64,000 nt of DNA from Desulfobacterales bacterium (GCA_018399235.1 JAGYOX010000001.1:646-64645); one strand, 5' to 3'; shown: positions 13,452-56,509, counted from the first letter of the stretch. Program-made: numbers and translations. Notes: generated by a model not told the origin, from the letters alone.

Positions 13452-13532
13452 GAAGGAATACTTTCTAAAAAACTTAATAATATATATTTATTCCATAAGG
13501 TTAAAAAGCTAACTTTCCGAGGACCTTTTTTT

Positions 13533-13603: not shown

Positions 13604-13626
13604 AGTGCCTGACACTAATGATTCAG

Positions 13627-13822
13627 TACCCTAAATAAACCTTAAACCTTACACCCAACACCCTAAACCCTAAACCCTAAACCCTAAACCCTAAACCCTA
13701 AACCCTACACCTTACACCCTAAACCTTACACCTTACACCCTAAACCTAAACCCTAAACCCTAAACCTTACACCTTACACCTTACACCCTAAACCTTACAC
13801 CCTAAACCCAATACCTAAAACC
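13627..13822. repeat. Heptamer tandem array, about 28 units, including six consecutive perfect CCCTAAA units
   Basis: ccctaaaccctaaaccctaaaccctaaaccctaaaccctaaa at about 13661-13703, flanked by CCTTACA/CCCTAAA variants. Lies between the cheA stop (13826) and the REC-GGDEF start (13451). Confidence 0.9.
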
Positions 13823-13825
13823 CAT

Positions 13826-16081: not shown

Positions 16082-16090
16082 GTGGAAAAA

Positions 16091-16186
16091 GGTTTAGGGT
16101 ATAAGGTTTAAGGTAAAAGGTCCAAGGTAAAAGGTTTAAGGTATAAGGTTCAAGGTAAAAGGTTTAAGGTTTAGGGTATAAGGTTT
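16091..16186. repeat. Heptamer array, G-rich on plus strand (GGTTTAR/GGTAAAA/GGTATAA units)
   Basis: ggtttagggtataaggtttaaggtaaaaggtccaaggtaaaaggtttaaggtataaggttcaaggtaaaaggtttaaggtttagggtataagg. Lies between the MCP stop and the cheA start. Confidence 0.9.
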
Positions 16187-16263
16187 TTAGCTATTCAACG
16201 AAATTTGTATGGCCAATGTAGCGGAAGGCTTTAGCCTTCCAGAAGATCCCGGCTGCGGTCGCA

Positions 16264-18231: not shown

Positions 18232-18243
18232 GTTCGACTCCTC

Positions 18244-18759
18244 TCAGTAATTATTTTGGTTGATCACCAGGTTTTCATCTTTCAGCAGCCTGTTACCGTC
18301 AAGGACGATGTTTCCGGCTTCGTCAATACCCTTGAGATAATCGGCGCGGCTACCGGTGAACGTAGGAAGCGACGGATGCAGGTCATCCGTCGAAATCTCC
18401 CGAACCCCAAGAATCTGATCGGCCAGGATGCCGAACGCCATTTTCGGGTCTGAAAGAATCAGCACATACGGGTTGTCCGGCTGCTCGTCCGCGCTAAGTT
18501 CAAACAGACGTTTCAAATCAATCACCGATATGATTTCCCCCCGCACGTTGATAACCCCGGGTATGTATTCCGGGATTCCCGGTATGAAAGTCAGCGGTCC
18601 GAGCGGGAGAACCTCACGAACAAACCGGAGTTCAATCGCGTATATTTCATCCGCCAGTAGAAAGCCGACCGTTTTAATGGCGTGTTTTTCGAAAGCCGCC
18701 TGATTTGGTTTTGCCAGCATATCCGCGCGGGCTTTAAGTATATCTTTTTCCGGCATCAA
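18244..18759 (-). CDS. cheW: CheW-like coupling protein
   Basis: 171 aa, single CheW-like domain (FLLADEIYAIELRFVREV...VINVRGEIISVIDLKRLF). Confidence 0.85.
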   Translation of the reverse strand: MMPEKDILKARADMLAKPNQAAFEKHAIKTVGFLLADEIYAIELRFVREVLPLGPLTFIPGIPEYIPGVINVRGEIISVIDLKRLFELSADEQPDNPYVLILSDPKMAFGILADQILGVREISTDDLHPSLPTFTGSRADYLKGIDEAGNIVLDGNRLLKDENLVINQNNY

Positions 18760-18764
18760 CAGTA

Positions 18765-20279
18765 TTATCCAGTCAATGATTGAACAGTTTCGAGCATCCG
18801 TGCCGCGGTCATTCCCTCAGACTGAGGGAGGACCTCTTCCGGATCTTTTGCCTTTAAAAGGGCGATGGTGTTTAAAAAGTATTTTCGGCTTTCTTCAAGC
18901 CGGTATCTTTGTCGTAATAGAACTCCCATTTGAAAGTGGGCCATGATAAAATCCGCATCCAAATAAAGGGCCCGCTTTAGGGCCCGGATCGCCGCGTCTA
19001 AATCATTTCCGGCCTGATAAATGGTTGAGAGGAGGAAATAGAGTTCAGGATTCAGCTTTTCAGATTCAATGGCCGCATGACACCAGTATTCCGCGTTTTT
19101 CAGCTCCCCGAGGTTGGCGTAGCAACGGGTTAAGAGGATCATGGATTGGGTCTGCATCAGAAACGAATTCTTCCGGAAATGACCATTTTCCAGTATTCGG
19201 CTGAGTTTTTTTGCAGCTTCGCTGTAACCGCCTCTTTCATAAGCTAAAACGGCGTTGTCATAAAGGCGATCAACTGCCGGCGGACGATTATCCCTGATAT
19301 CGGTTATCCGGCGGTTATTTAGACGGGGGGCCGGGTTCAGCGAAGCTCTTATTAATGATTCGGACTTGGCTGGTCGATCGCCGCGCCCGTGTTTTTTTCC
19401 ATGGGTTAACGGATATTTTTCCTCTTTCCTGGGAGGGCCTTTCCTAAAGAAGGTAGCATTGGCAAATCTGACCGGAGTAAGGGTTTTGGAATCAACAAAG
19501 CCGGCTTCCGCCGGTCCGGTAACCAGCCAGCCGTTATCCTCAAGCAGATCGACCAAGCAGTTGAGCACGTGCTGCCGGTTCATGGCATCGTGATACATGA
19601 GCACATTGCGGCAGAAAATGACATCCATGGGCTTTGGATATCCCAGGATTCTTTTATAATCCGGATCGGCAAAGTTTAACCGGGTAAATGCCGCCTGTCG
19701 GCGAATGCGGGGAAGCAGTTCAAACCGGTTATTCGAGTGCGGAATGAAATAATCCCTGATAATGGCATCAGGCGTTTCCCTTAGGGACCACCGGGTATAA
19801 ATGCCCTGTTCGGCAATTTTTAAAAACCGTCGATTGATGTCTGTACCGATAATGTGGATATCCCATTGTTTCAACACATCCCCCATGCGATCAATTAAAA
19901 TGGCTATGGAATAAGCCTCTTCACCGGTCGCACAGCCGGCGCTCCAGAAACGGATGGATTTTTCCCGCCGCCGGGGATATTCGATCAAGCCGCGTATAAT
20001 GTGATCCTGAAGGGTTTGAAAGATATTTTTGTCCCTCAGAAAATATGTCTCACCGATGGTCAGGCGGCCAACCAGCGGTTCCAATAGTTCGTCCGGTGAG
20101 GCGGATTCCAGAACCCTTCTGGCATATGCCTGGGGGGATTCAAACCCGGTTTCACGGGCGGCAGCCGCCACGCCTTTTACTAACAGGTTCCATTTTTTTG
20201 GGGGAAAGGAAAGACCGGTATGGGCAGCAATGAATCGGCTCAGGTCATGAAGCAATCTTTCCGGGATGGATGGGTCCAT
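18765..20279 (-). CDS. cheR: CheR-type MCP methyltransferase with C-terminal TPR repeats (WspC/FrzF-like)
   Basis: 504 aa. SAM-binding IRFWSAGCATGEEAYSIAIL, then a C-terminal ~170 aa with TPR-like A/Y/L periodicity. Confidence 0.9.
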   Translation of the reverse strand: MDPSIPERLLHDLSRFIAAHTGLSFPPKKWNLLVKGVAAAARETGFESPQAYARRVLESASPDELLEPLVGRLTIGETYFLRDKNIFQTLQDHIIRGLIEYPRRREKSIRFWSAGCATGEEAYSIAILIDRMGDVLKQWDIHIIGTDINRRFLKIAEQGIYTRWSLRETPDAIIRDYFIPHSNNRFELLPRIRRQAAFTRLNFADPDYKRILGYPKPMDVIFCRNVLMYHDAMNRQHVLNCLVDLLEDNGWLVTGPAEAGFVDSKTLTPVRFANATFFRKGPPRKEEKYPLTHGKKHGRGDRPAKSESLIRASLNPAPRLNNRRITDIRDNRPPAVDRLYDNAVLAYERGGYSEAAKKLSRILENGHFRKNSFLMQTQSMILLTRCYANLGELKNAEYWCHAAIESEKLNPELYFLLSTIYQAGNDLDAAIRALKRALYLDADFIMAHFQMGVLLRQRYRLEESRKYFLNTIALLKAKDPEEVLPQSEGMTAARMLETVQSLTG

Positions 20280-20737
20280 TATGCTGTTTCTGTCACCTGG
20301 CTGATTTGTTTAACGGTTTCCTGGGGGATCAGGTTGGCAAGCTCGTAGATAAGAACCGTTTGGCTTCCAAATGTGGCGATGCCGGATATATATTGCCGCA
20401 TCTCAGGGTAGACGGTTTCCGGATCAATCGCCGGTTCCGGCTGAAGCCGGTATACCCCCATCACTGCATCCACTGCAAACGCGGCACGATAACCGGCAGC
20501 CTCCGCTATGATAAACCGGTCTGAAATACGGATTTGTCTTCCGGTCAGACCGAACTGTTTCCGGAGGTCAACAAGCGGTACCATATCCCCGCCAATATTG
20601 ATAAGGCCTATTATCAAGTCCGGGACTTCAAGCGGATAAGTCGGTTGAACAGCCCGTACAACGCGTTCTATATCTGAACTCGCAACGGCAAAATACTGAT
20701 CATCAATTGTGAAAATAACGTAATGGGCTTCGGGCAT
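20279..20737 (-). CDS. cheW: CheW-like coupling protein (first gene of the operon)
   Basis: 152 aa CheW-like domain (FTIDDQYFAVASSDIERVV...LINIGGDMVPLVDLRKQF). 1-nt overlap with the cheR start. Confidence 0.85.
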   Translation of the reverse strand: MPEAHYVIFTIDDQYFAVASSDIERVVRAVQPTYPLEVPDLIIGLINIGGDMVPLVDLRKQFGLTGRQIRISDRFIIAEAAGYRAAFAVDAVMGVYRLQPEPAIDPETVYPEMRQYISGIATFGSQTVLIYELANLIPQETVKQISQVTETA

Positions 20738-26570: not shown

Positions 26571-27935
26571 TTAAAACTTCCCGTCCATGAGATGCTTGTC
26601 GATCCGATCTACTTGTTTCCAGACCTCGCCTTTGACCTTTATCTCCTTTTCGATGTTGTTGATTGAATGGATAACAGTGGCATGATAACGGTTAAAACTT
26701 CTCCCGATCGATTGAATGGATTGTCTGGTATGGCGACGGGCCAGAAACATGGCAATCTGCCGGGGCCGAACGACCTCTCTTTTCCTGGAATTGGATTCGA
26801 TTTCTTTTTCTGAAATGCCAAACTCCCTGCAGACCACTTTCTTTATCGACCCAACGGTTATTGTTTTTCTCGTTATTGCGATATTTTTGACAACGCTCTT
26901 AGCCAGCGGCAGATCCACCTCCATGTTCATGAGACGGGATTTAGTAGCCACCCCCATCAAACCGCTTTCAAGAAGCCGCACGCTTTCGGTGAGCTCACTG
27001 GCTATATATTCAATCACCTCGGTGGGAAACGCGCATTCATAATTATGAACCTTATTCTTTAGAATCTTTACTCGGGTGGAAAAGTCAGGAATCTGGATTT
27101 CTGAAATGACGCTCTGGGACAATCGGGACCGCAAATGCTCACCCAGCTTCGGAATATCCTTTAACGGCATGGTACTGGAAAAAATGATTTTCTTCCCTGA
27201 ATCGTATAAATAATCAAGAGACAAGGCCAGCTCATCCTGGGTCCGGGTGCGGCCGGCTAAAAAATGGATATCATCTAATAACAAGACATCACAATTATTC
27301 CGGTATTTCTGTTTAAATTCGGTAATCGAGTTGCTTCTCAAGGAATTGACCATGTCGGTGGTAAAATCCTCGGCCGTTATATACATCACCCGTTCATTCG
27401 GAAAGGCTGAAAGGATTTTATGACCAACCGCCTGGGACAAATGGCTTTTACCCATTCCCGGCTGCGACAACAGGAAAAGCGGCGGAAACTTGTTTTCCTG
27501 GCAGGCCAGGGCAAACGCCGCATTATAGGCAAACGTTGAATTCTCGCCCACAACAAAACGATCAAACGTAAAATCCTTTCGCAAGAGTCTGCCGTATCTT
27601 GGCTGACATTCGAACTTGGGCAGGCTTATTTGGGAATAACCCTTTTTAGGCTGTATAGGCTTAGGCTTCCCGCCATTACCATTGTTATTGGCATTGTCAT
27701 GAGAGACCTCAAGCAAAAGCCTTGTCTGCCGGCCAACCAGCCGGGTTAATTCGCTTTTAATCGTCCCCCCGAAATTGTCCCTCACCCGCTGCTTAAATAA
27801 AAAATTCGGGCACTCCAGCACAACCGCATCATCGATTGTTTTTAAAAATTCTACCGGCTCAATCCACATTTGATAGACATGCGTGGGGGTAGACTCCTTG
27901 ATCGACGCCTTCACCTTTTCCCAGATACTTTTCAT
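26571..27935 (-). CDS. dnaA: Chromosomal replication initiator protein DnaA
   Basis: 454 aa. AAA+ Walker A SQPGMGKSHL, Walker B LLLDDIHFL, and C-terminal DNA-binding domain RPRQIAMFLARRHT...IGRSFN.YHATVIHSINNIE. Confidence 0.95.
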   Translation of the reverse strand: MKSIWEKVKASIKESTPTHVYQMWIEPVEFLKTIDDAVVLECPNFLFKQRVRDNFGGTIKSELTRLVGRQTRLLLEVSHDNANNNGNGGKPKPIQPKKGYSQISLPKFECQPRYGRLLRKDFTFDRFVVGENSTFAYNAAFALACQENKFPPLFLLSQPGMGKSHLSQAVGHKILSAFPNERVMYITAEDFTTDMVNSLRSNSITEFKQKYRNNCDVLLLDDIHFLAGRTRTQDELALSLDYLYDSGKKIIFSSTMPLKDIPKLGEHLRSRLSQSVISEIQIPDFSTRVKILKNKVHNYECAFPTEVIEYIASELTESVRLLESGLMGVATKSRLMNMEVDLPLAKSVVKNIAITRKTITVGSIKKVVCREFGISEKEIESNSRKREVVRPRQIAMFLARRHTRQSIQSIGRSFNRYHATVIHSINNIEKEIKVKGEVWKQVDRIDKHLMDGKF

Positions 27936-45706: not shown

Positions 45707-45804
45707 GGAAGTGCGAAGCTCACTGGTGGGGCTCCCGGACTTCAAATCCGGTGTAGGGCGTTAACACCGTCCTAGGTGGGTTCGATTCCCATGCACTTCC
45801 GCCA
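45707..45804 (+). tRNA. selC: Selenocysteine tRNA (tRNA-Sec, anticodon UCA)
   Basis: 98 nt. 8-bp acceptor stem GGAAGTGC/GCACTTCC, anticodon loop CTTCAAA within GGACTTCAAATCC (as in E. coli selC), long variable arm, GGTTCGATTCC T-arm, discriminator G plus encoded CCA. Confidence 0.9.
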
Positions 45805-45814: not shown

Positions 45815-46900
45815 TCAATTGCACAGAATATTATAACAGACAACCGGCTCTGTCTTGTTTTTGACATAAACCTCCCCCCGGCATTCAAAATTAAAATCAC
45901 AGGCACTTTTTCGGAAAGTATTTTCACCGATAATAATCTCTCCGCCTTTGGCCATTTCCTCCAGCCTGGCGGCGACATTGACGCAATCCCCGATAACGGT
46001 ATAGTCCATACGGTTTGACGATCCAATGTTACCGATAATGGCCACTCCAGTGTTGATTCCAATACCTATCTCAAAGTATTCCTGGTTTTCCTGGAGCCTG
46101 CGGGTCATAAGGGCCCGGGTCGCCTGCTGCATTTCAAGAGCCGTCCGGATGGCGTCTTCAGGGGGATTGGTATCTGATTCCACAAGACCAAAAACAGCTA
46201 TCAGCTGATCCCCTACAAACTTGTCCAGTAAACCGTTATTCTTAAAAATAGTATCAACCATGATACTGAAATATTCGTTTAGCATCAAGACGACGTCGTC
46301 CGCCTTCATCCGTTCGGCGATGGCTGTAAATGAACGGATATCGGCGAATAGAATCGTTACTTCACGCCGCTCGGTTTCCAACAGGACGCCATCTTTTAAA
46401 TTGATCAGCTTGTCAACCAGGTTGTTACCGACATACCGACTCAAGCGATTCCTCAGAGCTTCTTCCTGCTTGGTTTTTTTATATGACAGGGCAAGGTCCC
46501 GGGAATAAATCATCAGCTGTGTGGCCTGTTCCTGGTTTTTCCGCTTCATTTTTTCCAGGTTTTGCAACATCCCGTTGACATGGTCAGCAATTTCATTTAA
46601 TTCCCGGTCCGCCTGAATCTGTATCGGCCCTTTGTTTTCACCGCCTTCCAGTCGGGCGATTTCCTGACTGAGAAAAAACAACTGGTCAGCCGACCGACGA
46701 AGCAATGAAAAACCCGACAGGATGGATATCAAAATCAACGGAAGGAAAAAAATAAAGGTCTCAGTGAAGTTTATCTGATTGTTAATGAATAGATAGATCA
46801 GCAACAGATAGGGTATGACGGCCATCATGGCCAGTGCGACGACAATTTTACCTCCAAGGCTCTTATAGTCGCTATAATAGGCTGGTTTTCCCCTTTTCAT
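45815..46900 (-). CDS. Membrane-anchored class III adenylate/guanylate cyclase with HAMP-like linker
   Basis: 361 aa with two N-terminal TM helices. Cyclase homology domain motifs VTILFADIRSFTAIAE, GDQLIAVFG, IGINTGVAIIGNIGS, DYTVIGDCVNVAARLE. Confidence 0.85.
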   Translation of the reverse strand: MKRGKPAYYSDYKSLGGKIVVALAMMAVIPYLLLIYLFINNQINFTETFIFFLPLILISILSGFSLLRRSADQLFFLSQEIARLEGGENKGPIQIQADRELNEIADHVNGMLQNLEKMKRKNQEQATQLMIYSRDLALSYKKTKQEEALRNRLSRYVGNNLVDKLINLKDGVLLETERREVTILFADIRSFTAIAERMKADDVVLMLNEYFSIMVDTIFKNNGLLDKFVGDQLIAVFGLVESDTNPPEDAIRTALEMQQATRALMTRRLQENQEYFEIGIGINTGVAIIGNIGSSNRMDYTVIGDCVNVAARLEEMAKGGEIIIGENTFRKSACDFNFECRGEVYVKNKTEPVVCYNILCN

Positions 46901-47358
46901 TCCTTCATCTCGGGATCGCTGCTGTCAATTCGTTCAAAATCAAACGTCCGATCAAATCGAACAGCCACACGAACCGATCTATCCGCAGAATCTTCCTCCT
47001 TACCTTCAACACGGACAACCGTTGCCTCGGCTCGGATACAGGCTCTGACATCATGGGTTCCAGCCAAATAAATGATCGTTTCGATCTGCTGCCCCGCATA
47101 GTATTTTTCAGGCTGACACGGTAAAAACAAGGCGCCGCCTCCGGATACATCCTGTAATTCACCTTGATCCCAGCTTAAAGCTTTATCATCTCCAGGGAAT
47201 TTTACCGAAACGTCAAATTCAACAGAGTACCGTTTAAAGACCCGTTTGTTCTGTTTTTTGATCATGGTAGGGCCCGAAGATGTCCGAAAAGCATACGTCC
47301 GGCGAGAAAAAGGGCGTTTTAAAGGCAGTCTTAATAAATTTACCAGTCTGTTTCCCAT
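46897..47358 (-). CDS. PilZ-domain protein (canonical c-di-GMP binding motifs)
   Basis: RxxxR (RVFKR) and DxSxxG (DVSGGG) motifs are present. An alternative start at 47265 would give 122 aa. 4-nt overlap with the cyclase start. Confidence 0.8.
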   Translation of the reverse strand: MGNRLVNLLRLPLKRPFSRRTYAFRTSSGPTMIKKQNKRVFKRYSVEFDVSVKFPGDDKALSWDQGELQDVSGGGALFLPCQPEKYYAGQQIETIIYLAGTHDVRACIRAEATVVRVEGKEEDSADRSVRVAVRFDRTFDFERIDSSDPEMKE

Positions 47359-47374: not shown

Positions 47375-49798
47375 CTATGTAATTACACAAACGCGACGGA
47401 CTTCATTAATATCGGTCAACCCTTTGAATACCTTTAAAATCCCATCCTGCATCAGAGTGGTCATGTCTTCCTGCTTGGCCTGGCGGAATAGTTCCTCGGC
47501 ACTGGCCTGTTTTTTGATCATCCGTTTGACCTCTTTACTCCCATCCATGAGCTCGTGTATGCCCATCCGCCCCTTATACCCGGTTCCGTTGCACTGCTCA
47601 CAACCGACCGGTGCATAAAGCTTTAAATCCGACGTGTACTTGATGCCGGTCTTTTGGAACTCCTCTGGCCCGTAATCGTTTACCATTTCATCAAATTCTT
47701 CTTTTGACGGCGTATACTCCTTGCGGCAGTTTTTACAAAGACGCCTAAGCAGCCGTTGGGCCAAAACCACCAGGAACGCATCGGAAAAGTTCAACGGATT
47801 TAATCCCATATCCAATAGCCGGGTTACGGTTTCAGGCGCGCTGTTGGTATGAAGCGTAGAGAAGACCAGATGGCCGGTAAGTGAGGCTTCAACACCGATG
47901 GAGGCCGTTTCGTAGTCCCGCATCTCACCAACCATAATAACATCCGGGTCGGCCCGCAGAAAAGAGCGCATGATTCTCGCGAAATCCAGGCCGATTTTGT
48001 TTTTAACCTCTACCTGACGCAAGCCGAGCTGGGAAATTTCCACCGGGTCTTCCGCCGTCCAGATTTTGCGATCCGGCGTATTGATATGATGCAGGGCGGA
48101 ATGAAGCGTGGTGGTTTTACCAGACCCGGTTGGGCCGACACACAGAATAATCCCATAGGGCTTATTGATGGCCTTTTTAAGCATCTCATAGTTCCGTTCC
48201 GTCAAACCGAGATCCTCAAGCTGCATAGCGCCGCTGGTAGCCAAAATCCGGAGAACGGCATCCTCATAACCGCCGGCAGTAGGAAGGGTTGCCACCCGGA
48301 GTTCAAACTCCGGAATTCCTCTGCGCTTAAATTTGATCTTGCCATCCTGGGGCATCCGCCGCTCGGCAATATCCAGATTAGACATGATCTTGACCCTTGA
48401 AAGCAGCGCGTGTGCGAATGAATTGGGTATTTCTAAAAAGTCCTGGCAGACCCCGTCAATGCGAAACCGGATCTTGGTTCGTTTGGTCACCGGCGAGGGC
48501 TCTATATGAATATCCGAGGCATCCTTGCGATAAGCGGAAATAAGCATCTGGTCAACCAGCCGAACGACTTTTCCGGAGCCTTCGTCAAGCTCTTCAACAT
48601 CATCTTCTTCCTCTTCATCTTCCTCAAAAGCGATATCCGGCATATCATCCATCGCATTCGAATTCGAATTACTTCCTTCTATCGTCCCTGACTGGTGCGA
48701 CTTTTTCTCTTTGAAAAAAAGATTGATAATTTGCTCAATGTCTTCTTTGATTCCAACGGAAAACATGAATTTATTGGTATTGAACAACGCCTTGGCATGA
48801 TCCAGTTTTCTTAGGTCCTTGGGATCATCCATTAAGATTTCGATATGCCCGACATCCCAATGCACCGGCACCCAGAGATCCTGCAGCAGAAAAGGTTTTT
48901 TCAGGTTGCTGAGCAGTTCATAGGGCACTTCCACCTTTGGATCAAACGTCCGGAACTGACAATTATAGTAAGCGGAGAGCGACTTGCCAATATTATCCTT
49001 GGAGACCTTGAACTGCTCCATAAGAATGAATTCAACGCTTTTTTTCATTTTTTTGGAAAGCGTCAGCGCCTTCTGAAGCTGGACGGTGGATACGATTTCA
49101 TTTTTCAACAGGTAATCGTAGCGGGATTCGTATCGCCGATCCGGCTGCACAGCCTCGAGGCGCTCCTTGATTTTGGGATACACAGGATCAATTTTCTGCA
49201 CCGACTCATAGCATTTTATGGACAGCTCCTTATAATCCCTTTTATCCAATTCCTGACCGAGGTAGAACTTAATTGACGCTTCAGTTTTTTTCGGCAGTTT
49301 ATCTTCTTTTACAATCCGATCAATTTCCTCAGATGCTTCTCCCGGCGGATAAACCGACAGCAGACAGTCCAAAAAATCCTGCAGAAAATCCTCGACCGGG
49401 AACTCGGTCTGAAAAAGCTTCTGGTATTCGGAAACCGCCTCCTTAAATAGCCCCAATTCCTTAAAGGCAGTCGCACTGTCATAGATTTCGGGACCGCTCT
49501 CCCCGATGGAGAGACCGGTTTTGATATGGGTTACATCTTCGGTGGAAAGATCGTACTCCGGTTCCTGGGCATCGTCTTCGATCTCCTGCCTGAGCTCGTC
49601 AATTTTACTCTGGAGTTCATTTCTTCTGGCTTCCTCATCATTGGGCAGTTCTGATAAAACCTGTTGATATATGGCCAACGCCTCATCATATAGCCCGTGG
49701 CCCTCATAGGTATCTGCAGTTTTAAGCCTTGATTCCACATCATTGGTTGTCGTTTGAGCATCTCCCATTTTGATGCCTCCTTTATCACCGGTAATCAT
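47375..49798 (-). CDS. PilB/GspE-family secretion ATPase with about 370-aa N-terminal extension
   Basis: 807 aa. Walker A GPTGSGKTT, Asp box, Walker B DPDVIMVGEMRD, His box GHLVFSTLHTN, tetracysteine CKNC...CEQC. T2SSE_N-like segment at about residue 220-330. TPR-like helices and the acidic run EEDEEEEDDVEE lie upstream. The start may be Met11 (49768). Confidence 0.85.
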   Translation of the reverse strand: MITGDKGGIKMGDAQTTTNDVESRLKTADTYEGHGLYDEALAIYQQVLSELPNDEEARRNELQSKIDELRQEIEDDAQEPEYDLSTEDVTHIKTGLSIGESGPEIYDSATAFKELGLFKEAVSEYQKLFQTEFPVEDFLQDFLDCLLSVYPPGEASEEIDRIVKEDKLPKKTEASIKFYLGQELDKRDYKELSIKCYESVQKIDPVYPKIKERLEAVQPDRRYESRYDYLLKNEIVSTVQLQKALTLSKKMKKSVEFILMEQFKVSKDNIGKSLSAYYNCQFRTFDPKVEVPYELLSNLKKPFLLQDLWVPVHWDVGHIEILMDDPKDLRKLDHAKALFNTNKFMFSVGIKEDIEQIINLFFKEKKSHQSGTIEGSNSNSNAMDDMPDIAFEEDEEEEDDVEELDEGSGKVVRLVDQMLISAYRKDASDIHIEPSPVTKRTKIRFRIDGVCQDFLEIPNSFAHALLSRVKIMSNLDIAERRMPQDGKIKFKRRGIPEFELRVATLPTAGGYEDAVLRILATSGAMQLEDLGLTERNYEMLKKAINKPYGIILCVGPTGSGKTTTLHSALHHINTPDRKIWTAEDPVEISQLGLRQVEVKNKIGLDFARIMRSFLRADPDVIMVGEMRDYETASIGVEASLTGHLVFSTLHTNSAPETVTRLLDMGLNPLNFSDAFLVVLAQRLLRRLCKNCRKEYTPSKEEFDEMVNDYGPEEFQKTGIKYTSDLKLYAPVGCEQCNGTGYKGRMGIHELMDGSKEVKRMIKKQASAEELFRQAKQEDMTTLMQDGILKVFKGLTDINEVRRVCVIT

Positions 49799-50028: not shown

Positions 50029-50400
50029 TTAAAAAATCTTTTTCCGCAGCAGTTGGCTGATACCTTTGCCGGTTTTTTGTTTATCAAGTACCGGCAACAA
50101 AACCTCACAATTTAATCGGACCATCGACATCGGCGCATGATCATCAAGAATAACCATTAAATAACCGTTATTCGTTTTCCGGATATAAAAACGGCCCTCA
50201 TCAAACATTATTTCAGCTTCTGTGACACCGGTTAATTCTTTAACCATAGAGGACCAGTTTACATTCTTTGTTTTCTCCTCATCGGATTGATAATCTTTTG
50301 TAAATTGAGAAACTGACAGCTCGCCCTCCTCTGTCAGGAATAAAATACCATGAACCCCCTCAATGCCAAGTACGTCTTTAAACATATCCGCCATGATCAA
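50029..50400 (-). CDS. Roadblock/LC7-like protein (second copy in cluster, MglB/MglC-like fold)
   Basis: 123 aa. Pattern GIEGVHGILFLTEEGEL...EAEIMFDEGRFYIRKTNNGYLMVILDDHAPMSMV fits the roadblock alpha-beta-alpha sandwich profile. Confidence 0.6.
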   Translation of the reverse strand: MIMADMFKDVLGIEGVHGILFLTEEGELSVSQFTKDYQSDEEKTKNVNWSSMVKELTGVTEAEIMFDEGRFYIRKTNNGYLMVILDDHAPMSMVRLNCEVLLPVLDKQKTGKGISQLLRKKIF

Positions 50401-50430
50401 TCCCGTTTACCCGATTGCTAAAAGTATAGA

Positions 50431-51558
50431 TCAACTTAGAACCCCTATAATTCGGTCTCTCGGTGCATCCGGATCGATTGAAATAACAGTTGTTTCATCA
50501 TCTTCCGGCAGGACAAGATACTGCCCTTCGCTGCCCTTGCTTGCATAGAGAACATTTAACTGACCGAGATCAAAAATTTCACCGAGATTTGACGCTTGAA
50601 TTATTATCTGATCCCAGTCATCATCCGTATAGATATCGTTAATCCCGCTATGATTACCCAAAGCAGCTGCCAATTGCCTCCGAATCGATTCTACTGCCGA
50701 CAACTCTTCTTCGGGCTCGGTCTCTTCAACTACCGGTGGCGGGTTCTGTGCCCCCTCAACATCAGCCTGGGCTTCAATAGCCTCTGCCTTTACATCCCCC
50801 GGATTTACAGGTTCTTCACCGCTTACAGGTTCATCCAGAACGATTTCATTGCCATCAGCAAGGGCTTGACTGGCTTCCTCGTTTTCATCCTTTGAACGCA
50901 TGGCGTCCAGTAAAATAGCCTGCAAATCCCCTTCGATAAGTTTCTCTTCAAAGACACAATCGTTTTCAATCGAAACAGATACGCTGGACCAGGAAAGAAT
51001 CTCGTATGCGGCCGCCTTGCCTTGTCGACCGGCGATACGGGCATTAACAATGTCACCGTTTCGGAAAAATAGAACCCCACCCAGTTTATTGGTTTTATTG
51101 AGTACATGCAACGTGCAGGTTTGCTGCTCCATTTCCACAAGCTGGAGAAAGGTTTCCAGAGAAACGTTATGCAGATTTCCCCCGGCGACTTTTTTGCGCA
51201 GTATTTTATTGATTTCCCCGGCCAATATATCCGGAGAGAACGGTTTTGTCAGATACCCGGCGGCCCCGCTTCGAAACACCACGTCTTTTGTTTTGGGCCG
51301 GTCATAAGCGGTGACAATAATCACGGGTATATCCGGGTAATTTGCCAAAATCCGCGACAGAAGATCAAACCCGTCTATACCCGGCATGCGCAGGTCCGAT
51401 ACCACCACCACGATATGCTCCTGTTTAAGGATTGCCAGCGCACTGTCTCCGCTATCCGCAGTCCTTATCGCAAAATCCCTTGAATAGCTTCCCAGTTCCT
51501 TGTGCATCAAGCTCAGCCATGACTGGTCATCATCAACAATCAATACTTTGGGCACCAT
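50431..51558 (-). CDS. Response regulator: REC plus DUF4388-like domain, acidic/Pro-rich linker and C-terminal small domain
   Basis: 375 aa. REC (VLIVDDD...SDLRMPGIDG...K). GNLHNVSLETFLQLVEMEQQTCTLHV...GGVLFFRNGDIVNA matches the DUF4388 pattern. The linker is rich in E/P/V. Confidence 0.75.
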   Translation of the reverse strand: MVPKVLIVDDDQSWLSLMHKELGSYSRDFAIRTADSGDSALAILKQEHIVVVVSDLRMPGIDGFDLLSRILANYPDIPVIIVTAYDRPKTKDVVFRSGAAGYLTKPFSPDILAGEINKILRKKVAGGNLHNVSLETFLQLVEMEQQTCTLHVLNKTNKLGGVLFFRNGDIVNARIAGRQGKAAAYEILSWSSVSVSIENDCVFEEKLIEGDLQAILLDAMRSKDENEEASQALADGNEIVLDEPVSGEEPVNPGDVKAEAIEAQADVEGAQNPPPVVEETEPEEELSAVESIRRQLAAALGNHSGINDIYTDDDWDQIIIQASNLGEIFDLGQLNVLYASKGSEGQYLVLPEDDETTVISIDPDAPRDRIIGVLS

Positions 51559-51614
51559 CTATAATATTTTCCCTCCCGGCGGCCTTTTAACAATATACAG
51601 AATTGCTTCTTTGT

Positions 51615-52670
51615 TTAAATCTCTACATCAAACGTATAAATCTCATCAATATATTCTTTATGCCACGATGCCAAGTACTTGCGAAAACTGCCGGCAATAC
51701 CCAGTTCTGATACGATCTCCCTGACGCATTCGACCACCCCCCTAACCAGCTGGGGTTGGGATGCGTTTCCTTTAAACACCAACTGACCGTTTAAATACCT
51801 AAAATCTCCAGCGAATGGATCTAGAAACTCGTATTCATCCACTTTATCCATGAATTTACGATTGAGAAGGGTTTCGAAATCAGCCCGGATTTTTTTATTC
51901 GCCCGAACTACTTTTTCCAGTAAAGAAAGAAGGCTTTGAAGCATTAAAATCACACGTTGCTGATCAGCCTCTTCCGGGGTTTTCCGTTCAGCCGAGGCCT
52001 TTTCAGGTTTTTTAGGGGCTGCTTTTTCAGGTTTGCCTCTGGAGGCTGAAGCTGCTGTTTGTTTGGTTGATGTAATATTGCCCAGATCGGTTTTCCAAAC
52101 ATTGAACAGCCCGCTACGCTCCCCGCATCTTTTAATGAGATCGTCCCTGTATCCCCGGCTTCGATCCACATCGCTCTTTCCTTTTGCCGAAGATCCGCCG
52201 ATGATTTCCCCGTTGAAAAAAAATAACAGGCCCCCACCTGAACTGTCGTTTAACTGAACATCGATATACCCGGTGAGCTTTTCATCCTCCATCTTCTTTA
52301 CAAGCCCTTCCAGATCTGTAAACTCTGAACTCAAATCACTGTATAGGGCACTTGAGTTTGCCAAATTCGACCAGTAATAAAGCCGATCCGGCTGAATCCG
52401 ATACACGGAAACAGAAAAATTATTTCCCGAAGCCGCTTTGATGATACGGTCAACCGCCACTTGACCTGTCACTTCAGATTTTTTGTCCTTGTAGGAGCCG
52501 TTCAGTATATTTTCGTCGTCAAAAAATACAACCGCTTCTGCTGTTGGGGCCTTAAAGTAAATACCGCCGCTCTCCAGCGCCCCCTGATAATGTTCCAGCA
52601 GTTTGTCGATTTTCAGGTAATAGCTGTTTAGATCCTCTATAACCGGCTTCTCTTTGGGTATAATGATCAT
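51615..52670 (-). CDS. Hypothetical protein with two DUF4388-like beta-rich repeats, Lys/Pro linker and unknown C-terminal domain
   Basis: 351 aa. Segments GGIYFKAPTAEAVVFFDDENILNGSY and GYIDVQLNDSSGGGLLFFFNGEIIGGSS resemble the G-x-L-x-F-x-x-G-x-I core of DUF4388. Linker KPEKAAPKKPEKASAERK. Confidence 0.5.
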   Translation of the reverse strand: MIIIPKEKPVIEDLNSYYLKIDKLLEHYQGALESGGIYFKAPTAEAVVFFDDENILNGSYKDKKSEVTGQVAVDRIIKAASGNNFSVSVYRIQPDRLYYWSNLANSSALYSDLSSEFTDLEGLVKKMEDEKLTGYIDVQLNDSSGGGLLFFFNGEIIGGSSAKGKSDVDRSRGYRDDLIKRCGERSGLFNVWKTDLGNITSTKQTAASASRGKPEKAAPKKPEKASAERKTPEEADQQRVILMLQSLLSLLEKVVRANKKIRADFETLLNRKFMDKVDEYEFLDPFAGDFRYLNGQLVFKGNASQPQLVRGVVECVREIVSELGIAGSFRKYLASWHKEYIDEIYTFDVEI

Positions 52671-52783
52671 CTCATTTCAGCTCCTTAATAATATATTATT
52701 GAATGGGCGTAGACAAAACAAGCAATGCGGAACAAACCTCTCCGCATTGCTTGCAAAAATTGATCTTTCTGGTTCCAAGTTGC

Positions 52784-53977
52784 CTATCGACGGCGCCTCA
52801 GCCGTTCAATGGAAAACCTGAGGCTATCCTGCATTCGGGAAATCGCATCCGCCAAGCTACCAATCTCGTCTTTGGCTTTGACCTCAATTTCGGCCTCAAG
52901 ATCGCCAACGCTGATCCGGTCCGCGGCTTCCGTCAGATACTGGATGTTTCGGGTAATCCGATATCCATAGATGGTAATGCAAAGACCGATGATAATGATG
53001 GCGCCGATAAGAATCCCAAAGTTGATGTTTCGGGTATTGGTGGACATCTGAGCGGCCGACTGCTTCAGACTGTCGGTCTTTTTGGTAAACTCATCAATAT
53101 AGGCTGTGGTCATCAAAAGATAGGGCTTGCCCTCCAGCGCAATCGGTGCAACCGCCATGTATTTATCACGGATTTTACCGTCCGGGTCCTTCCAGGAATA
53201 AAATCCCTGTGTTTCTTTGCCGCCCTTGGCCCGGGTTAGGACGTTCCAAAACTGTTCAAAATGCGGGCCCAGCGCCTTTCGGATCATATCAATATCATCG
53301 ATGCCGATAATATTTGGATTGGGATGCGCCCAGATGGTCCAGTCCTGGCCTCTCTCCGGCTCAGGATACTGAATAAGGCAGGAATATCCGGTTTCCCCAA
53401 CGCTTTGTACGGCTATCCCTGAAAAGTCAGGGGCGTAATTGAAGTCCTCTCGTTCCAGATCCGGATGGTTCCGTAAAAAAATCTCGCACTGAATCGCTAC
53501 ATCCCGGGCTTTCTGCATCAGTTTTTCTTTCCCTTCCTCAAGCACGAGATCGGTACTTTTCTCGGTAATGCTGGTCGCCAATTTGTTGAGTTGTTGCTGG
53601 GAGAAAAAACCGGTAAGAGCAATCAAAATAATCGGGATCACCAGAAACAATAGCATCATTTTGCCCCGCAGCCCCAAAAAACCGGAGGGACGAGCTGCAG
53701 AAACCGCTTCAGCACGGGGCCTTTCCTCCCGCGGCGGCGCGCTTGGCACCTCTTCCACGGGCTCTCTTGAAGGCTCTTCGGCCGCTTCCATACCATAACC
53801 GGCCCCACCGCCAAAAGGTTTTGAGGCTTCCGCTTCCTGCTCTTCAATGAGTTTTGACAGATTGGTCACATGACCGCATTCACTGCATCTGACCCGGATA
53901 TTTTTGCCCTTGTACTTCTCAATTTTCTCAGGATCAAGATGGTAAACTTTACCGCACTCCTCACAAATAACCGTCAT
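52784..53977 (-). CDS. Membrane protein: N-terminal cytoplasmic zinc ribbon, periplasmic Cache-like domain, C-terminal HAMP, no output domain
   Basis: 397 aa. CEECG...CSECG (MJ0042-type CxxC-x20-CxxC), an acidic/Pro linker, TM, about 190-aa extracytoplasmic domain, TM, then a HAMP ending the protein (DEIGSLADAISRMQDSL). Confidence 0.7.
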   Translation of the reverse strand: MTVICEECGKVYHLDPEKIEKYKGKNIRVRCSECGHVTNLSKLIEEQEAEASKPFGGGAGYGMEAAEEPSREPVEEVPSAPPREERPRAEAVSAARPSGFLGLRGKMMLLFLVIPIILIALTGFFSQQQLNKLATSITEKSTDLVLEEGKEKLMQKARDVAIQCEIFLRNHPDLEREDFNYAPDFSGIAVQSVGETGYSCLIQYPEPERGQDWTIWAHPNPNIIGIDDIDMIRKALGPHFEQFWNVLTRAKGGKETQGFYSWKDPDGKIRDKYMAVAPIALEGKPYLLMTTAYIDEFTKKTDSLKQSAAQMSTNTRNINFGILIGAIIIIGLCITIYGYRITRNIQYLTEAADRISVGDLEAEIEVKAKDEIGSLADAISRMQDSLRFSIERLRRRR

Positions 53978-54081
53978 GACTCGTCCTCCTTATCAAAATT
54001 GGCAACCTTTTTATTATACTTAAGGACTTTATGCTTAAAACCCACGAAGCCATCTGAATATTAACTTCGCCCGTATGATTT

Positions 54082-54552
54082 TCAGGTTTCAATTTCCCTG
54101 AGCTTTTTAACCATGGATTGCTGAAAAGCCACTTTCCTCTCTTCACGAATTATCTGACGAGCCAGCTGGTCAACCAGTTCCGCCGCCCGATGGGCAGGAA
54201 ATCTTGACGGATCTTCACCCATATCGTTTATCTCATCTTCAATCACCACATCGGCAATCGGTCCCATTGCCCGGGAAAGTTCATTGGAAAGTGCATTAAA
54301 AAAATCCCGCCCCAGCGTTGGCATCGCATCTTTTGCCACCTCAATAAGGCGAAGTTTATGGAGCTTATTTAGGACACCCCGAAGGTGCTTCATATTTACA
54401 TTCAAGGAACGAGCCACTTGAGCAAGATTCTTGGTTCCATCCAGCTCCATTAAAACCTGCAGCATTTCACTATCCAATGAGACTTCACCCAAATCCGCAC
54501 GGACGGTCCGCTTAAGCACCAGCCTGGATATATCCCCTGAAAATTCTACCAT
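54082..54552 (-). CDS. Hypothetical protein with winged-helix-like N-terminal half
   Basis: 156 aa. LQVLMELDGTKNLAQVARSLNVNMKHLRGVLNKLHKLRLIE resembles a MarR/wHTH segment. No other recognisable motif. Confidence 0.5.
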   Translation of the reverse strand: MVEFSGDISRLVLKRTVRADLGEVSLDSEMLQVLMELDGTKNLAQVARSLNVNMKHLRGVLNKLHKLRLIEVAKDAMPTLGRDFFNALSNELSRAMGPIADVVIEDEINDMGEDPSRFPAHRAAELVDQLARQIIREERKVAFQQSMVKKLREIET

Positions 54553-54633
54553 ATATCAGCCTCCGAATGCTAATGACAGCAATCTTCTAGAATAATATTT
54601 TAAATATATCATATTTTAACACCAACAATCAAA

Positions 54634-55359
54634 TCAGGCACCGATATTTTTAATCAGCTGACGCAGAATACGGAACTCCTCCTGAAGCGTTTTTTTAACC
54701 TCAGATAGGATATAATCCGCCATCTCCCGGGACTCCGGAGACAAACTGGGCGGGGCCTGAGCGGGTCGTCTGGCTGACACCGGTTCGGCAGCCTCGGAAG
54801 CAACCTCGAGAGTCTCTGGTGCCTCTTGTTTGGCTAGTACCCGTTGTTTGAACCTTTTATATTTCTTAACCTCGCCGGCGATCATTTTTTTCTTTTCAGC
54901 TTCGCTCAATCCTTTAGAAAGAAGCGCTCTTTCAAATTTTTTAAATACTGATGTGACCAACTTGATGGCATCCGGATCGGCCTTGGCCTTTCTGGCCTTA
55001 ATGTATTTCCCCAGAGACTCATGCAACTTTAGAAACAGCAGGTAAACCCGGTCATCCTTGTACTGGGACTTTAAACGTTTTACCTCCTGAAGGAACTCCT
55101 TCATGGTTTTATCGCTAATCTCCCAATCAATGGAGAAAACCAGCGCTTTTAGATTGTCAATCGGCGTTGTTTCACCTGACTTGGCTTGCATTGACGGGGC
55201 TCCTTGCGTGCGGGGGGATTTTACATCAGAGGCTTTGCTGGTGGGTTTATCAGAAGCATCATTTATCGAACCGTCTTCAGGGGCTTCCCCTCCGAATAAT
55301 TCATCTAACCGGCTGGACACTTCCTCGTTGAGGTTTGTATCTTCATCTTTGGGACCCAA
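54634..55359 (-). CDS. Hypothetical Lys/Glu-rich helical protein with disordered N-terminus
   Basis: 241 aa, no motif I recognise. Starts 22 nt after the mglA stop on the same strand. Confidence 0.5.
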   Translation of the reverse strand: MGPKDEDTNLNEEVSSRLDELFGGEAPEDGSINDASDKPTSKASDVKSPRTQGAPSMQAKSGETTPIDNLKALVFSIDWEISDKTMKEFLQEVKRLKSQYKDDRVYLLFLKLHESLGKYIKARKAKADPDAIKLVTSVFKKFERALLSKGLSEAEKKKMIAGEVKKYKRFKQRVLAKQEAPETLEVASEAAEPVSARRPAQAPPSLSPESREMADYILSEVKKTLQEEFRILRQLIKNIGA

Positions 55360-55381
55360 TGGTTTACCCTCCTGTCGGTAA

Positions 55382-55987
55382 TTATTCGAGTTTTTTTCTT
55401 AAGGACGTAACGGTCAGGGCAATAATTTTTTTCATAGTGGCCGCCACGTTGTCGCCTTTCACCGCACTCGCCTCGAAATACGGGGCCTTCAATCGGCTAT
55501 TTAAATCCTTCTGAAGGGTGTCAACGGATAAAATTGGAATACCTTCTTCTTCCAGGTCCCGCTTATTGTACTGAACAACCAGCGGAATGTTGAAAATGTT
55601 CTTATTGAAGGTTTCCAGGTTCTCTTTTAGGTTTTGCAAAGAGCGAATGTTCATCTCTCGTCGTAAATCCATCGAATCCGCCACAAAGACAAGTCCGTCC
55701 ACGCCTCTTAACACCAGACGCCGCGTGGCGTTATATTTAACCTGACCCGGCACAGTGTATAATTGTACTTTAATGCTGTGGCCTTTTATCTCTCCGATAT
55801 CAAAGGGTAAAAAGTCGAAAAAAAGAGTCCGGTCACCGTAGGTTTTTACTGTGACCATTTCGTTTTGAATACGTTTCTTAAACTTTTGGTTAATATACTC
55901 AAGATTCGTTGTTTTCCCGCCTCGGCCTGGACCGTAATAGACGATTTTGACCTGAACCTCCTTCTTCTTCGGATTTATTAACGCCAA
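55382..55987 (-). CDS. mglA: MglA-type Ras-like small GTPase
   Basis: 201 aa. KIVYYGPGRGGKTTNLEYI, TLFFDFLP, LYTVPGQV (Thr replaces the Ras G3 Asp, as in Myxococcus MglA), GVDGLVFVADS, QYNKRDL. Collinear with M. xanthus MglA as I recall it. Confidence 0.9.
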   Translation of the reverse strand: MALINPKKKEVQVKIVYYGPGRGGKTTNLEYINQKFKKRIQNEMVTVKTYGDRTLFFDFLPFDIGEIKGHSIKVQLYTVPGQVKYNATRRLVLRGVDGLVFVADSMDLRREMNIRSLQNLKENLETFNKNIFNIPLVVQYNKRDLEEEGIPILSVDTLQKDLNSRLKAPYFEASAVKGDNVAATMKKIIALTVTSLRKKLE

Positions 55988-56116
55988 ATCGCTTTCCTCC
56001 AGAAATAATAAGTTAACAATTGCAACAAGCTTTCCCTGTATTTCGGCGGTATGCCAACAACAGCCATTTTATCTTCAAAGCGCTCGACTTGAGAGATCTC
56101 TGTTAAAAATTTCAAA

Positions 56117-56509
56117 CTAAAGCAGTTTTTGAATCCGCTTGATGGCTTCAGCCACTTTAAGCCGTAAAAATCCAAGAGAGACATTTTTATTAAAGATGGT
56201 CAATAACAATAAATCTTCAACCACCTTGCTAAAATGGATACTCTCTTCTTCCCCCTTATGAAAGAGCAATGAAAATTCCTGTTCTCCAATAATATTGGCC
56301 ATCGCACTGACTGCCCCATAGTTGCCGGCTGCCAGGGCAGCCAGCGAAAACACATCATGACCTTTATCGCCGCTGTCCAAGTTAGCGATGACATTACCGG
56401 CTAAATCCATCAAAATAACACTCTGAACGCCCATATCGATCAGTTCCTCCTGGAGGATGTTCTCAATCGATTCAATCTGTTGCTTATCAAATTCAATCGT
56501 AAAATCCAT
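56117..56509 (-). CDS. mglB: MglB-type roadblock/LC7 protein (GAP partner of MglA)
   Basis: 130 aa. MGVQSVILMDLAGNVIA...AALAAGNYGA...LLLTIFNKNVSLGFLRLK is a roadblock pattern. Lies immediately upstream of mglA, as in the Myxococcus mglBA operon. Confidence 0.8.
   Translation of the reverse strand: MDFTIEFDKQQIESIENILQEELIDMGVQSVILMDLAGNVIANLDSGDKGHDVFSLAALAAGNYGAVSAMANIIGEQEFSLLFHKGEEESIHFSKVVEDLLLLTIFNKNVSLGFLRLKVAEAIKRIQKLL

Follow-up and report, generated by a model that had tools for sequence, protein, structure and literature searches.

A stretch of DNA of 64,000 nt from a Desulfobacterales bacterium (GCA_018399235.1 JAGYOX010000001.1:646-64645), referred to here as the window, was analysed with regard to the gene cluster at positions 50029-56509, which is headed by mglB and mglA. 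Together with the gene that follows it, this cluster was found to form a unit of nine genes conserved among the sulfate-reducing Desulfobacterales, in which an MglA/MglB switch is probably coupled to a type IV filament ATPase. Which genes are present, the domains and folds assigned to them, and the retention of their order across about 55 species-level genomes with differing flanks are observations, while the protein contacts proposed below are drawn by analogy with characterised systems. The cluster unites three lines of work from separate organisms, namely the MglA/MglB switching of Myxococcus, the PilB-binding PATAN regulators of cyanobacteria and switches in which a zinc ribbon (ZnR) and its linker recruit MglB. 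Little is known of how Desulfobacterales behave on surfaces, or of their polarity and pili.

Eight open reading frames (ORFs), all co-directional on the minus strand, fill 50029-56509. From 5’ to 3’ these encode MglB (56117-56509), MglA (55382-55987), a 241-aa protein of an unannotated family (u241, 54634-55359), a 156-aa protein with a winged helix-turn-helix (wHTH) half (u156, 54082-54552), a ZnR-Cache-HAMP membrane protein (52784-53977), a double PATAN-like protein of 351 aa (u351, 51615-52670), a response regulator with receiver (REC) and PATAN (DUF4388) domains (REC-PATAN, 50431-51558) and a second protein of the Roadblock/LC7 fold (u123, 50029-50400). The spacer between mglB and mglA is 129 nt, and those from mglA onward, computed from the coordinates, are 22, 81, 104, 113, 56 and 30 nt. 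An earlier note on this DNA, made from the sequence alone, had listed these eight genes, and its genes, coordinates and gaps were all reproduced on ORF reading. It had ended the cluster at 50029, a boundary that was not retained, as the same-strand run goes on with genes for a PilB-family ATPase with a TPR extension (TPR-PilB, 807 aa, 47375-49798), a PilZ-domain protein and a cyclase. The ATPase gene begins 230 nt past u123.

The conservation of this arrangement was investigated with a u351 profile scan using one genome per species, which gave 104 loci (designated L numbers), of which 80 were fetched with 10-kb flanks and compared using tblastn with the window proteins. The order mglB, mglA, u241, u156, ZnR-HAMP, u351, REC-PATAN, u123, TPR-PilB was found to be complete in 54 of the 57 loci that span it, distant ones included, so that the gene order, which the earlier note had proposed to search for in related genomes, is indeed conserved. 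The mglB gene adjoins mglA in 66 loci, u351 has mglBA on its 5’ side in 65 of 66, and the ATPase gene is directly 3’ of u123 in 57 of 60. Synteny in the close group extends all the way from mutS to larC, as would be the case if the genes were adjacent merely through inheritance, with no functional coupling. This explanation, to which next to no likelihood is given, was refuted by comparison with the distant group, defined as loci in which u351 is 37-47% identical to the window copy. There, the flanking mutS/amiC/purB and M20/larC genes are gone and all flanks differ (they include genes for acetyl-CoA hydrolase, GidB, Lon and GreA), yet the nine genes are kept in order. Mere inherited synteny is thus ruled out and the ATPase gene is part of the unit; the short gaps, the duplication or splitting of sub-units as modules, and the recurrence of an mglB-mglA-u241 triad in another taxonomic order, the Desulfobulbales, also speak against it. 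The earlier view of a conserved, self-contained module centred on MglA/MglB is upheld by the retention of gene order where the flanks differ, and none of its uncharacterised proteins fell into a well-characterised unrelated family.

Variation among the loci was found to be modular. The REC-PATAN and u123 pair is tandemly duplicated in L053, L066, L074 and L075, seven loci have an additional gene for a PAS-PAS protein ahead of REC-PATAN, and the periplasmic middle of the membrane protein is swapped or diverged in L051, L063 and L067 with its ZnR and HAMP ends kept. In L060 the TPR part occurs alone as a stand-alone protein of 347 aa. These duplications, insertions, swaps and splits support the existence of functional sub-units.

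The TPR-PilB product consists of a TPR-like N-terminal extension of approximately 225 aa followed by a complete PilB-family ATPase, with Pfam matches to T2SSE (5.9e-122), MshEN (4e-8) and TPR_14 (3.3e-5). Residues 229-800 align with the full PilB of Myxococcus xanthus (3jc8, E-value 7e-107), and the best full-length matches are PilB proteins of type IVa pili. Every feature of a PilB core was identified, namely T2SSE together with the Walker A and B motifs, the Asp box, the His box and a tetracysteine site. Conservation in 55 orthologues was observed for Walker A/B, for the His box and for the CxxC...CxxC of the tetracysteine site. The protein scored 514 bits with the NCBIfam PilB model TIGR02538 (cut-off 675.65) and 484.7 bits with that of GspE, also below cut-off, and is therefore best described as PilB-family. 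A homology search with the TPR N-terminal region returned six fragments only. The c-di-GMP (cyclic di-GMP) motif of MshEN domains is RLGxxLLxxG(L/I), with two glycines. At this position TPR-PilB carries RYDYLLKNEI, in which both glycines are replaced, a replacement kept in the family, and the motif appears to be degenerate.

The nature of the filament was considered from this evidence. It is unlikely that the module controls a secretion- or adhesion-type filament, such as one resembling the type II secretion system, MSHA or competence systems, instead of a motility pilus or polarity. The near equality of the GspE and PilB scores and the MshEN-type N-domain would suit such a role, but the best full-length matches are to PilB of type IVa pili and neither glycine of the MshE c-di-GMP motif is retained. 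None of the loci showed a PilT retraction ATPase, and the three prepilins of L074 are short and minor-pilin or pseudopilin-like, which would also be in keeping with secretion or adhesion; in characterised systems, MglA and PATAN regulators act on motility pili. Genes of the filament machinery were identified beside the cluster in one sub-lineage (L066, L074 and L075), where mglB is immediately preceded by a prepilin peptidase gene and where, past the ATPase gene and a single-domain REC gene, there are three genes whose products bear canonical G|FTLIE or G|VSLVE prepilin leaders. A prepilin peptidase gene was also found upstream in L053. The occurrence of PilZ genes beside the cluster in several lineages likewise favours a link to type IV filaments.

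The earlier note had suggested a possible link to gliding, and had reported neither glt/agl nor type IV pilus structural genes in the window. The latter observation stands for glt/agl, pilins, PilC and PilMNOPQ, and is amended by the presence of the PilB-family ATPase. The former suggestion, of an eight-gene polarity switch for Agl/Glt-like gliding of a filamentous sulfate reducer, is very unlikely to be correct. One carrier (L032) is labelled Desulfonema limicola, of a gliding genus, and the gliding protein GltJ has a ZnR of the type found here, but Desulfonema is the only gliding genus among carrier labels spanning many families and genera, and no GYF domain was reported by Pfam in the ZnR protein. 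Neither the window nor about 85 related loci showed any glt/agl-type gene, and it is prepilin peptidase and prepilin genes that flank the cluster in the sub-lineage described above. Since the product of the conserved ninth and terminal gene is a PilB-family ATPase, the connection is with the motor of a type IV filament and not with Agl/Glt-type gliding.

At the other end of the unit, the 130-aa product of mglB matches Robl_LC7 (8.4e-9, 35.5 bits) above the Pfam gathering cut-off of 23, in agreement with its earlier reading as a roadblock protein. A match to the NCBIfam equivalog for the Thermus-type MglB (3e-17, 63 bits) is below the cut-off of 200. Median identity of this protein to the window copy is 91% in close loci and 62% in distant loci, and it is presumed, by analogy, to be the GTPase-activating partner of MglA. 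The mglA product is a small Ras-like GTPase of 201 aa with a TTG start. A phmmer search of the PDB matched its residues 1-198 to MglA of Thermus (4.5e-52) and of M. xanthus (3e-51). Group 1 MglA proteins, in the sense of Wuichet and Sogaard-Andersen (2014), are defined by an Arg finger beside the G2 Thr, a TVPGQ motif and a coupled mglB gene (PMC4316618). All three were identified here besides the G domain similarity: the P-loop GPGRGGKT, the segment GDRTLFFDF (in which RT is the intrinsic Arg finger beside the G2 Thr) and YTVPGQ were read directly, the last two also aligning with Thermus MglA, with the mglB gene 129 nt upstream. The P-loop and TVPGQ motifs cited in the earlier note are thus present.

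The third gene, u241, encodes a protein with an N-terminal acidic motif (RLDELFGGE), a disordered linker, a helical core of approximately 115 aa with the signature SIDWEI[ST]D...GKYIK...[AH]P[DN], and a C-terminal helix. It had been described as lacking a recognisable domain, which holds in that no match was found among Pfam, NCBIfam or PDB sequences, profile search included, but it belongs to a large unannotated family. In a HMMER scan of 1.84 billion representative proteins, relatives were identified in 880 representative clusters at E<=1e-3. Of these, 770 are at E<=1e-10 and expose an unannotated domain family that is genomically tied to mglA. The best matches are mostly proteins of 600-1350 aa with 2-4 copies of the ~115-aa core (S[IL]DWEITD...GKYI...AHP[DN]), huge acidic repeat spacers (23-32% D+E) and a C-terminal helix as in the short form. 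Members of this long form include very large acidic proteins of Desulfobulbales, a hypothetical protein of the isolate Desulfosediminicola ganghwensis and a protein with the source label ‘pilus assembly protein FimV’ (JGI/IMG), this being a label only. The N-terminal motif, generalised as hydrophobic-D-x-hydrophobic-F-x-x-acidic, was found in 64 of 67 short-form orthologues. Among four long forms examined, it is repeated 2-4 times in the spacers of three and occurs once, N-terminally, in the fourth. The spacers of long proteins P0201, P0202 and P0208 additionally carry repeated blocks such as ALQGVDVETEADDD..EEPLP..G..APAL besides the hydrophobic-D-x-hydrophobic-F motif. Such repeated blocks and short motifs point to multivalent short linear motifs.

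Spacing between mglA and u241 has a median of 12 nt across 65 loci. Five further contexts outside the cluster-derived set show the upstream genes, and in all five a u241-family gene follows mglB-mglA by 11-12 nt. The pair adjacent to the u241-family gene of D. ganghwensis encodes MglB and MglA proteins 52% and 70% identical to the window copies, respectively. Three loci of Desulfobulbales type were found to contain the mglB-mglA-u241 triad alone, with a PilC-like gene 4-5 kb away, and in one Thermodesulfobacteriota metagenome-assembled genome a long form of 787 aa lies within a full nine-gene cluster. Due to this recurrence beyond the nine-gene loci, the triad is the deepest conserved unit, and the coupling of the genes makes u241 the strongest candidate for a direct partner of MglA.

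The product of u156 has a wHTH N-terminal half, as the earlier note had read it, with weak HTH_47 matches in 32 of 32 orthologues (best 2.9e-5), and a C-terminal half covered in its orthologues by a precomputed match to DUF8082 (PF26309). Its median identity is 76% in close loci and 49% in distant loci. The fifth gene encodes a membrane protein with a cytoplasmic MJ0042-type ZnR, an acidic/Pro-rich linker, a first transmembrane segment, a periplasmic Cache-like domain, a second transmembrane segment and a HAMP domain at which the protein ends, with no enzymatic output. Of its earlier description as a zinc-ribbon/Cache/HAMP protein, the ZnR (Zn_ribbon_4, 7.9e-9) and HAMP (5.9e-13) were identified in the window copy by Pfam, which gave no Cache match there at E<=1. 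The Cache assignment comes from 30 orthologues, with matches to Cache_3-Cache_2 in 20 (best 5.6e-11), dCache_2 in 10 and sCache_2 in 4. Against 177,635 PDB sequences, the top match of the window ZnR was that of AgmX/GltJ (7zok_A), a weak one at an E-value of 0.015. No GYF domain was reported by Pfam scans of the window protein or among the families listed for 30 orthologues, and the linker enters the first transmembrane segment directly. In GltJ, MglA-GTP is bound by the linker, while the ZnR contacts the linker and serves to recruit MglB (PMC11135422), so the earlier note was inexact in having the ZnR itself contact MglA.

A conserved RNA hairpin was identified in the 113-nt gap between the membrane protein gene and u351, approximately 50 nt upstream of the latter (52718-52754, minus strand). 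It has a 15-bp stem and a 7-nt loop, followed by UUUUGU, with a minimum free energy of -23.6 kcal/mol (z -5.0). Of 45 close-group loci, 44 carry it, the loops being variable and the flanking sequence not conserved. In an alignment of 45 sequences, 94.8% of cells were paired and 10 of the 15 pairs showed compensatory changes; none of 500 shuffles reached the observed value, and slid controls paired at 32-46%. The hairpin is unique in the window and matched no Rfam family, and no comparable hairpin was found at seven other junctions examined in the close group. Loci of the distant group are without it, and the gaps there are often under 60 nt. It is most likely an internal terminator or attenuator, or a processing or stability element, and would split the unit into a five-gene part for switch and sensor and a four-gene part for PATAN, Roadblock and ATPase proteins. 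Promoter-like sites are carried by the 230-nt gap before the ATPase gene, one of them at 49881-49853. A scan for sigma-54 promoters gave fewer matches than expected by chance and none in the intergenic regions of the cluster.

The division at the hairpin bears on another explanation, under which the cluster would be a signalling unit similar to the conservons of actinobacteria, with a HAMP sensor, Roadblock protein, wHTH protein and MglA-type GTPase whose output is gene regulation through the wHTH/DUF8082 protein, the ATPase being just one client. The first five genes do parallel the conservon composition described in PMC4316618, they are set apart from the rest by the terminator-like hairpin, and the wHTH signal is present in every u156 orthologue. 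Despite this, the explanation is improbable: the sensor is without a kinase module, no match of u156 to DUF742 (CvnC) was reported, the GTPase is of Group 1 type (Arg finger, TVPGQ) and not of the Group 2 type found in conservons, and in 54 of 57 loci the upstream five are accompanied by the four downstream genes, that of the ATPase among them.

The four-gene part begins with u351. Its product has two PATAN-like alpha/beta repeats, at residues about 9-101 and 107-193, and a K/P-rich linker (200-234), which is disordered and leads to a C-terminal domain that is conserved and helical and includes a beta-hairpin. No Pfam match was obtained with the window protein itself. The two DUF4388-like repeats proposed earlier were corroborated by comparison of the halves with each other (hhalign 92%, E-value 7e-7), of the second half with the PATAN domain of REC-PATAN (88.5%, E-value 2.7e-6), and by DUF4388 matches in 15 of 26 family members (best 8.2e-6). 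An AlphaFold2 model had a pLDDT of 79.6, and at full length gave only meaningless sliding-clamp matches in the PDB using Foldseek (TM-score about 0.1). A total of 665 homologues were identified, every one labelled ‘hypothetical’, from genomes of Desulfobacterales type and metagenomes.

REC-PATAN was likewise found to be the REC-DUF4388 regulator that the earlier note had described, with matches to Response_reg (4.5e-26, residues 5-113) and DUF4388 (6.3e-17, 62.2 bits against the PF14332 cut-off of 25, residues 127-226), together with an acidic/Pro-rich linker and a conserved C-terminal domain of approximately 75 aa. Among 74 orthologues, conservation of at least 90% was observed for the DDD motif, for D54 and for the K-P motif (K105); the Thr before AY (about residue 82) is conserved too. 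Its architecture is not that of PatA-type regulators, REC preceding PATAN in the reverse order, nor that of RomR, due to the presence of PATAN and the conserved C-terminal globular domain. The latter resembles u123 weakly (hhalign 21-30%), a similarity that provides a lead that it may be a half-Roadblock domain pairing with u123. Profiles of this domain, of u241 and of u156 gave nothing usable among PDB sequences other than generic wHTH matches.

The likely true start of u123 is the ATG at 50394, giving a protein of 121 aa, the length of the database copy also. The window protein gave no Robl_LC7 match with Pfam and no significant similarity to the MglB of the same cluster (BLASTP; hhalign 3%), and among 36 orthologues weak Robl_LC7 matches were found in 13 (best 3.4e-4). 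Its AlphaFold2 model (pLDDT 85.3, pTM 0.77) gave 88 Foldseek matches in the PDB at E<1e-3, and all 50 listed are Roadblock/LC7 proteins, including LAMTOR, Asgard Roadblock proteins, Thermus MglB (3e-5) and M. xanthus MglC (7ct3, 6e-5; probability 1.00, TM-score 0.55-0.71). The earlier call of a second roadblock protein is therefore right, being supported by the Roadblock fold, alpha-beta-beta-alpha-beta-beta-beta-alpha, and not by a sequence-level match of the window copy. A basic C-terminal tail, KG.G..L[RK]KK or KG.G..F[KR]K[KR] (window 50029-50100), is conserved; it is disordered or a low-confidence helix in the model and could be a membrane- or partner-binding peptide.

These components can be arranged in a model of how the MglA/MglB switch would act on the ATPase. 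MglA-GTP would be the ON state, with an MglB dimer as its GTPase-activating protein, as in known systems, and the u241-family protein would bind MglA directly as effector, exchange factor or scaffold. The membrane protein is predicted to sense a periplasmic ligand, while its ZnR and linker may hold MglB and/or MglA at the membrane in the fashion of GltJ. The PATAN of PixE and PixG binds the PilB1 N-terminal domain and PilC (bioRxiv 10.1101/2021.06.11.447907); whether PATAN has a conserved role with pilus machines was left open by that study. By analogy with these regulators, REC-PATAN and the double-PATAN u351 would dock on the N-terminal region of the ATPase, with phosphorylation as an added input, and u123 may pair with MglB or the C-terminal domain of REC-PATAN in an MglC-like manner. 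In M. xanthus, PilB is brought to the pole by SgmX, a TPR protein to which MglA-GTP binds, although no direct contact between SgmX and PilB was detected (PMC11580455). The fused TPR extension could play the role of SgmX here, receiving MglA-GTP and turning on filament extension where and when the GTPase is active. In the lineage of the window, the PilZ protein and cyclase would add cyclic-nucleotide inputs, and the conserved hairpin 3’ of the fifth gene is likely to govern how the upstream ‘switch’ genes are balanced against the downstream ‘motor-adaptor’ genes. As the motor ATPase itself bears the TPR element, the model predicts concrete binary interactions and touches on how MglA/SgmX brings PilB to the machine (PMC11580455).

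A broader proposal, somewhat less likely than not to be correct, can be made tentatively. Its two parts, taken together, are that the u241 family may be a new and widespread class of direct MglA partners (exchange factor, effector or polar hub), forming an obligatory third gene of Desulfobacterota mglBA operons, single-core and of 240 aa in Desulfobacterales and giant, acidic and multi-core in Desulfobulbales; and that the TPR-PilB fusion and the PATAN proteins may show MglA-type switches acting directly on the pilus extension motor. If true, this would fill a gap in Myxococcus, that of the route from SgmX to PilB.

A number of points weigh against the coupling of the MglA/MglB switch to a filament ATPase. 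Every protein interaction in the model is proposed by analogy, no histidine kinase is encoded in the cluster, and the domain order of REC-PATAN is the reverse of that in PatA-type regulators. The ATPase scores below both equivalog cut-offs given above and may be a specialised paralogue with another role, and its TPR assignments are weak, the best being the TPR_14 match. The 64-kb window contains no pilin, PilC, PilM-Q or PilT genes, and loci L055, L068 and L077 are without the ATPase gene. The hairpin with its U-tract and the promoter-like sites before the ATPase gene also mean that a single transcript over 56.9-50.0 kb is not assured.

Comparison with the MglA/MglB module of M. xanthus, which also involves SgmX-dependent recruitment of PilB and the proteins RomR, RomX, MglC and RomY, showed that a Group 1 MglA (Arg finger, TVPGQ) encoded beside mglB, a second Roadblock-fold protein (MglC there, u123 here), a TPR element tied to a PilB ATPase and a receiver protein with an acidic/Pro-rich linker are common to both. 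The partners are encoded in one cluster here, while M. xanthus mglA is not near the genes of its partners (PMC4316618), and SgmX is a separate protein with 14 TPRs, unlike the TPR region fused to the ATPase in the window. RomR consists of REC, a Pro-rich region and a Glu-rich C-terminus with no other globular domain, and REC-PATAN differs from it by its PATAN and distinct C-terminal domain. No chain resembling RomX, a three-helix bundle with affinity for MglA-GTP and the REC of RomR, was found by u241 or u156 profiles in PDB sequences, a set in which the presence of RomX is uncertain. MglC, which binds MglB and RomR, and u123 are similar in fold only, and u241, u156 and u351 have no described Myxococcus counterpart. 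The functional analogues of RomR, RomX and MglC seen by the earlier note are such by analogy only, REC-PATAN not being RomR-like in architecture and the profiles searched against PDB sequences not having returned RomX. The cluster is not a member of the Myxococcus RomR/RomX/MglC set, with REC-PATAN outside both RomR and PatA architectures and the ZnR protein without GYF.

Similarities to other systems were also identified. The cyanobacterial PatA-type regulators PixG, PilG, PixE and LsiR, which bind PilB1 and PilC, share the combination of PATAN and receiver encoded alongside a PilB-type extension ATPase. The window cluster differs from them in the REC-then-PATAN order and in having no chemotaxis-like kinase or photoreceptor gene, and adds MglA/MglB and a double-PATAN protein without REC. 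GltJ (AgmX) of M. xanthus and ZitP of Caulobacter resemble the membrane protein in their N-terminal CxxC...CxxC zinc ribbon, flexible linker and transmembrane segment; in place of a GYF, TonB-like or DUF3426 region, the window protein has its periplasmic Cache-like domain and C-terminal HAMP. Actinobacterial conservons (CvnA sensor kinase, CvnB Roadblock, CvnC and CvnD GTPase) also bring together a HAMP sensor, a Roadblock protein, a small helical/wHTH protein and an MglA-family GTPase, from which the cluster differs in its kinase-less sensor, its Group 1 instead of Group 2 GTPase, its gene order and its extra PATAN and ATPase genes. Acidic polar hubs of the FimV/HubP type are similar to the long u241-family members in being very acidic and repeat-rich, in contrast to the window copy, which is a short, single-core form. 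No LysM, transmembrane segment or FimV C-terminal domain was seen, no dedicated test having been made.

The association of PATAN genes with mglA/mglB in gene neighbourhoods was already noticed in 2006 and in 2014 (PMC4316618). The literature was found to contain no description of the nine-gene unit, of the u241 family or of an mglBA cluster with a TPR-PilB fusion, and searches for DUF4388 with roadblock, Desulfonema with MglA, MglA/MglB with Desulfobacter, and DUF8082 returned nothing.

Downstream of the ATPase gene, the PilZ-domain protein (46897-47358, minus strand) matches PilZ at 2.1e-6 (28.4 bits, cut-off 22.5) and is a lineage-specific accessory that is probably a c-di-GMP receptor. It is followed by the gene of a second accessory specific to the lineage, a class III adenylate/guanylate cyclase (45815-46900, minus strand; Guanylate_cyc 1.2e-29), the start of which overlaps the PilZ stop by 4 nt (46897-46900). 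The median spacing of the two genes is -4 nt in 33 loci, and the overlap suggests a translationally coupled pair. The PilZ gene lies 3’ of the ATPase gene in 34 close-group loci, and the pair was detected in the close group only; unrelated PilZ genes flank the cluster in distant loci L045, L049 and L052. Modules for cyclic nucleotides recur around the cluster: in L045, a second mglA followed by a PATAN protein with a cyclic-nucleotide-binding domain (1562-3337) lies upstream of the main cluster, and in L055 a protein with cNMP-binding, CBS and DUF294 domains follows u123. In L085, a gene convergent with that of the ATPase (11816-12150, minus strand, running off the end of the locus) encodes a product of at least 692 aa with MshEN, REC and PatA_N, in which a PATAN regulator is thus fused directly to an N-domain of PilB type.

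The purB gene, an AmiC-type amidase gene and mutS were found 5’ of mglB, and housekeeping genes (M20 peptidase, LarC, PgpA, LigT, RecA and AlaS) were found beyond the cyclase gene. A tRNA-Sec gene (45707-45800, plus strand; Rfam RF01852, 78 bits, E-value 4e-15) lies between the M20 peptidase and cyclase genes on the strand opposite to its neighbours. The rest of the window holds metabolic genes beside dnaA, a Wsp-like chemosensory cluster and dynamin-like GTPases. The Wsp-like cluster (11449-20737, minus strand) encodes CheR, a 171-aa ORF product, a dCache methyl-accepting chemotaxis protein, a CheA-CheW-REC hybrid, REC-GGDEF and CheB, and represents a c-di-GMP-producing pathway approximately 30 kb from the PilZ-carrying mgl cluster. 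The 171-aa product is possibly a CheW.

Two dynamin-family GTPase genes (4970-7222, plus strand; 9917-11428, minus strand) were identified around genes for a ParA/MinD-like ATPase, a TetR regulator and RecX, with 7450-8259 (plus strand) listed among them. The first 2000 nt of the window have a G+C content of 36%, compared to approximately 48% elsewhere, and ORFs at 50-1972 (640 aa) and 2199-3011 (270 aa) gave no Pfam match at E<=1e-6; this low-G+C start may be foreign DNA. Nearly all genes from 38 to 63 kb are carried by the minus strand. The dnaA gene (26571-27935, minus strand) is located near the turn of the cumulative GC skew, which changes from rising to falling at about 24-26 kb.

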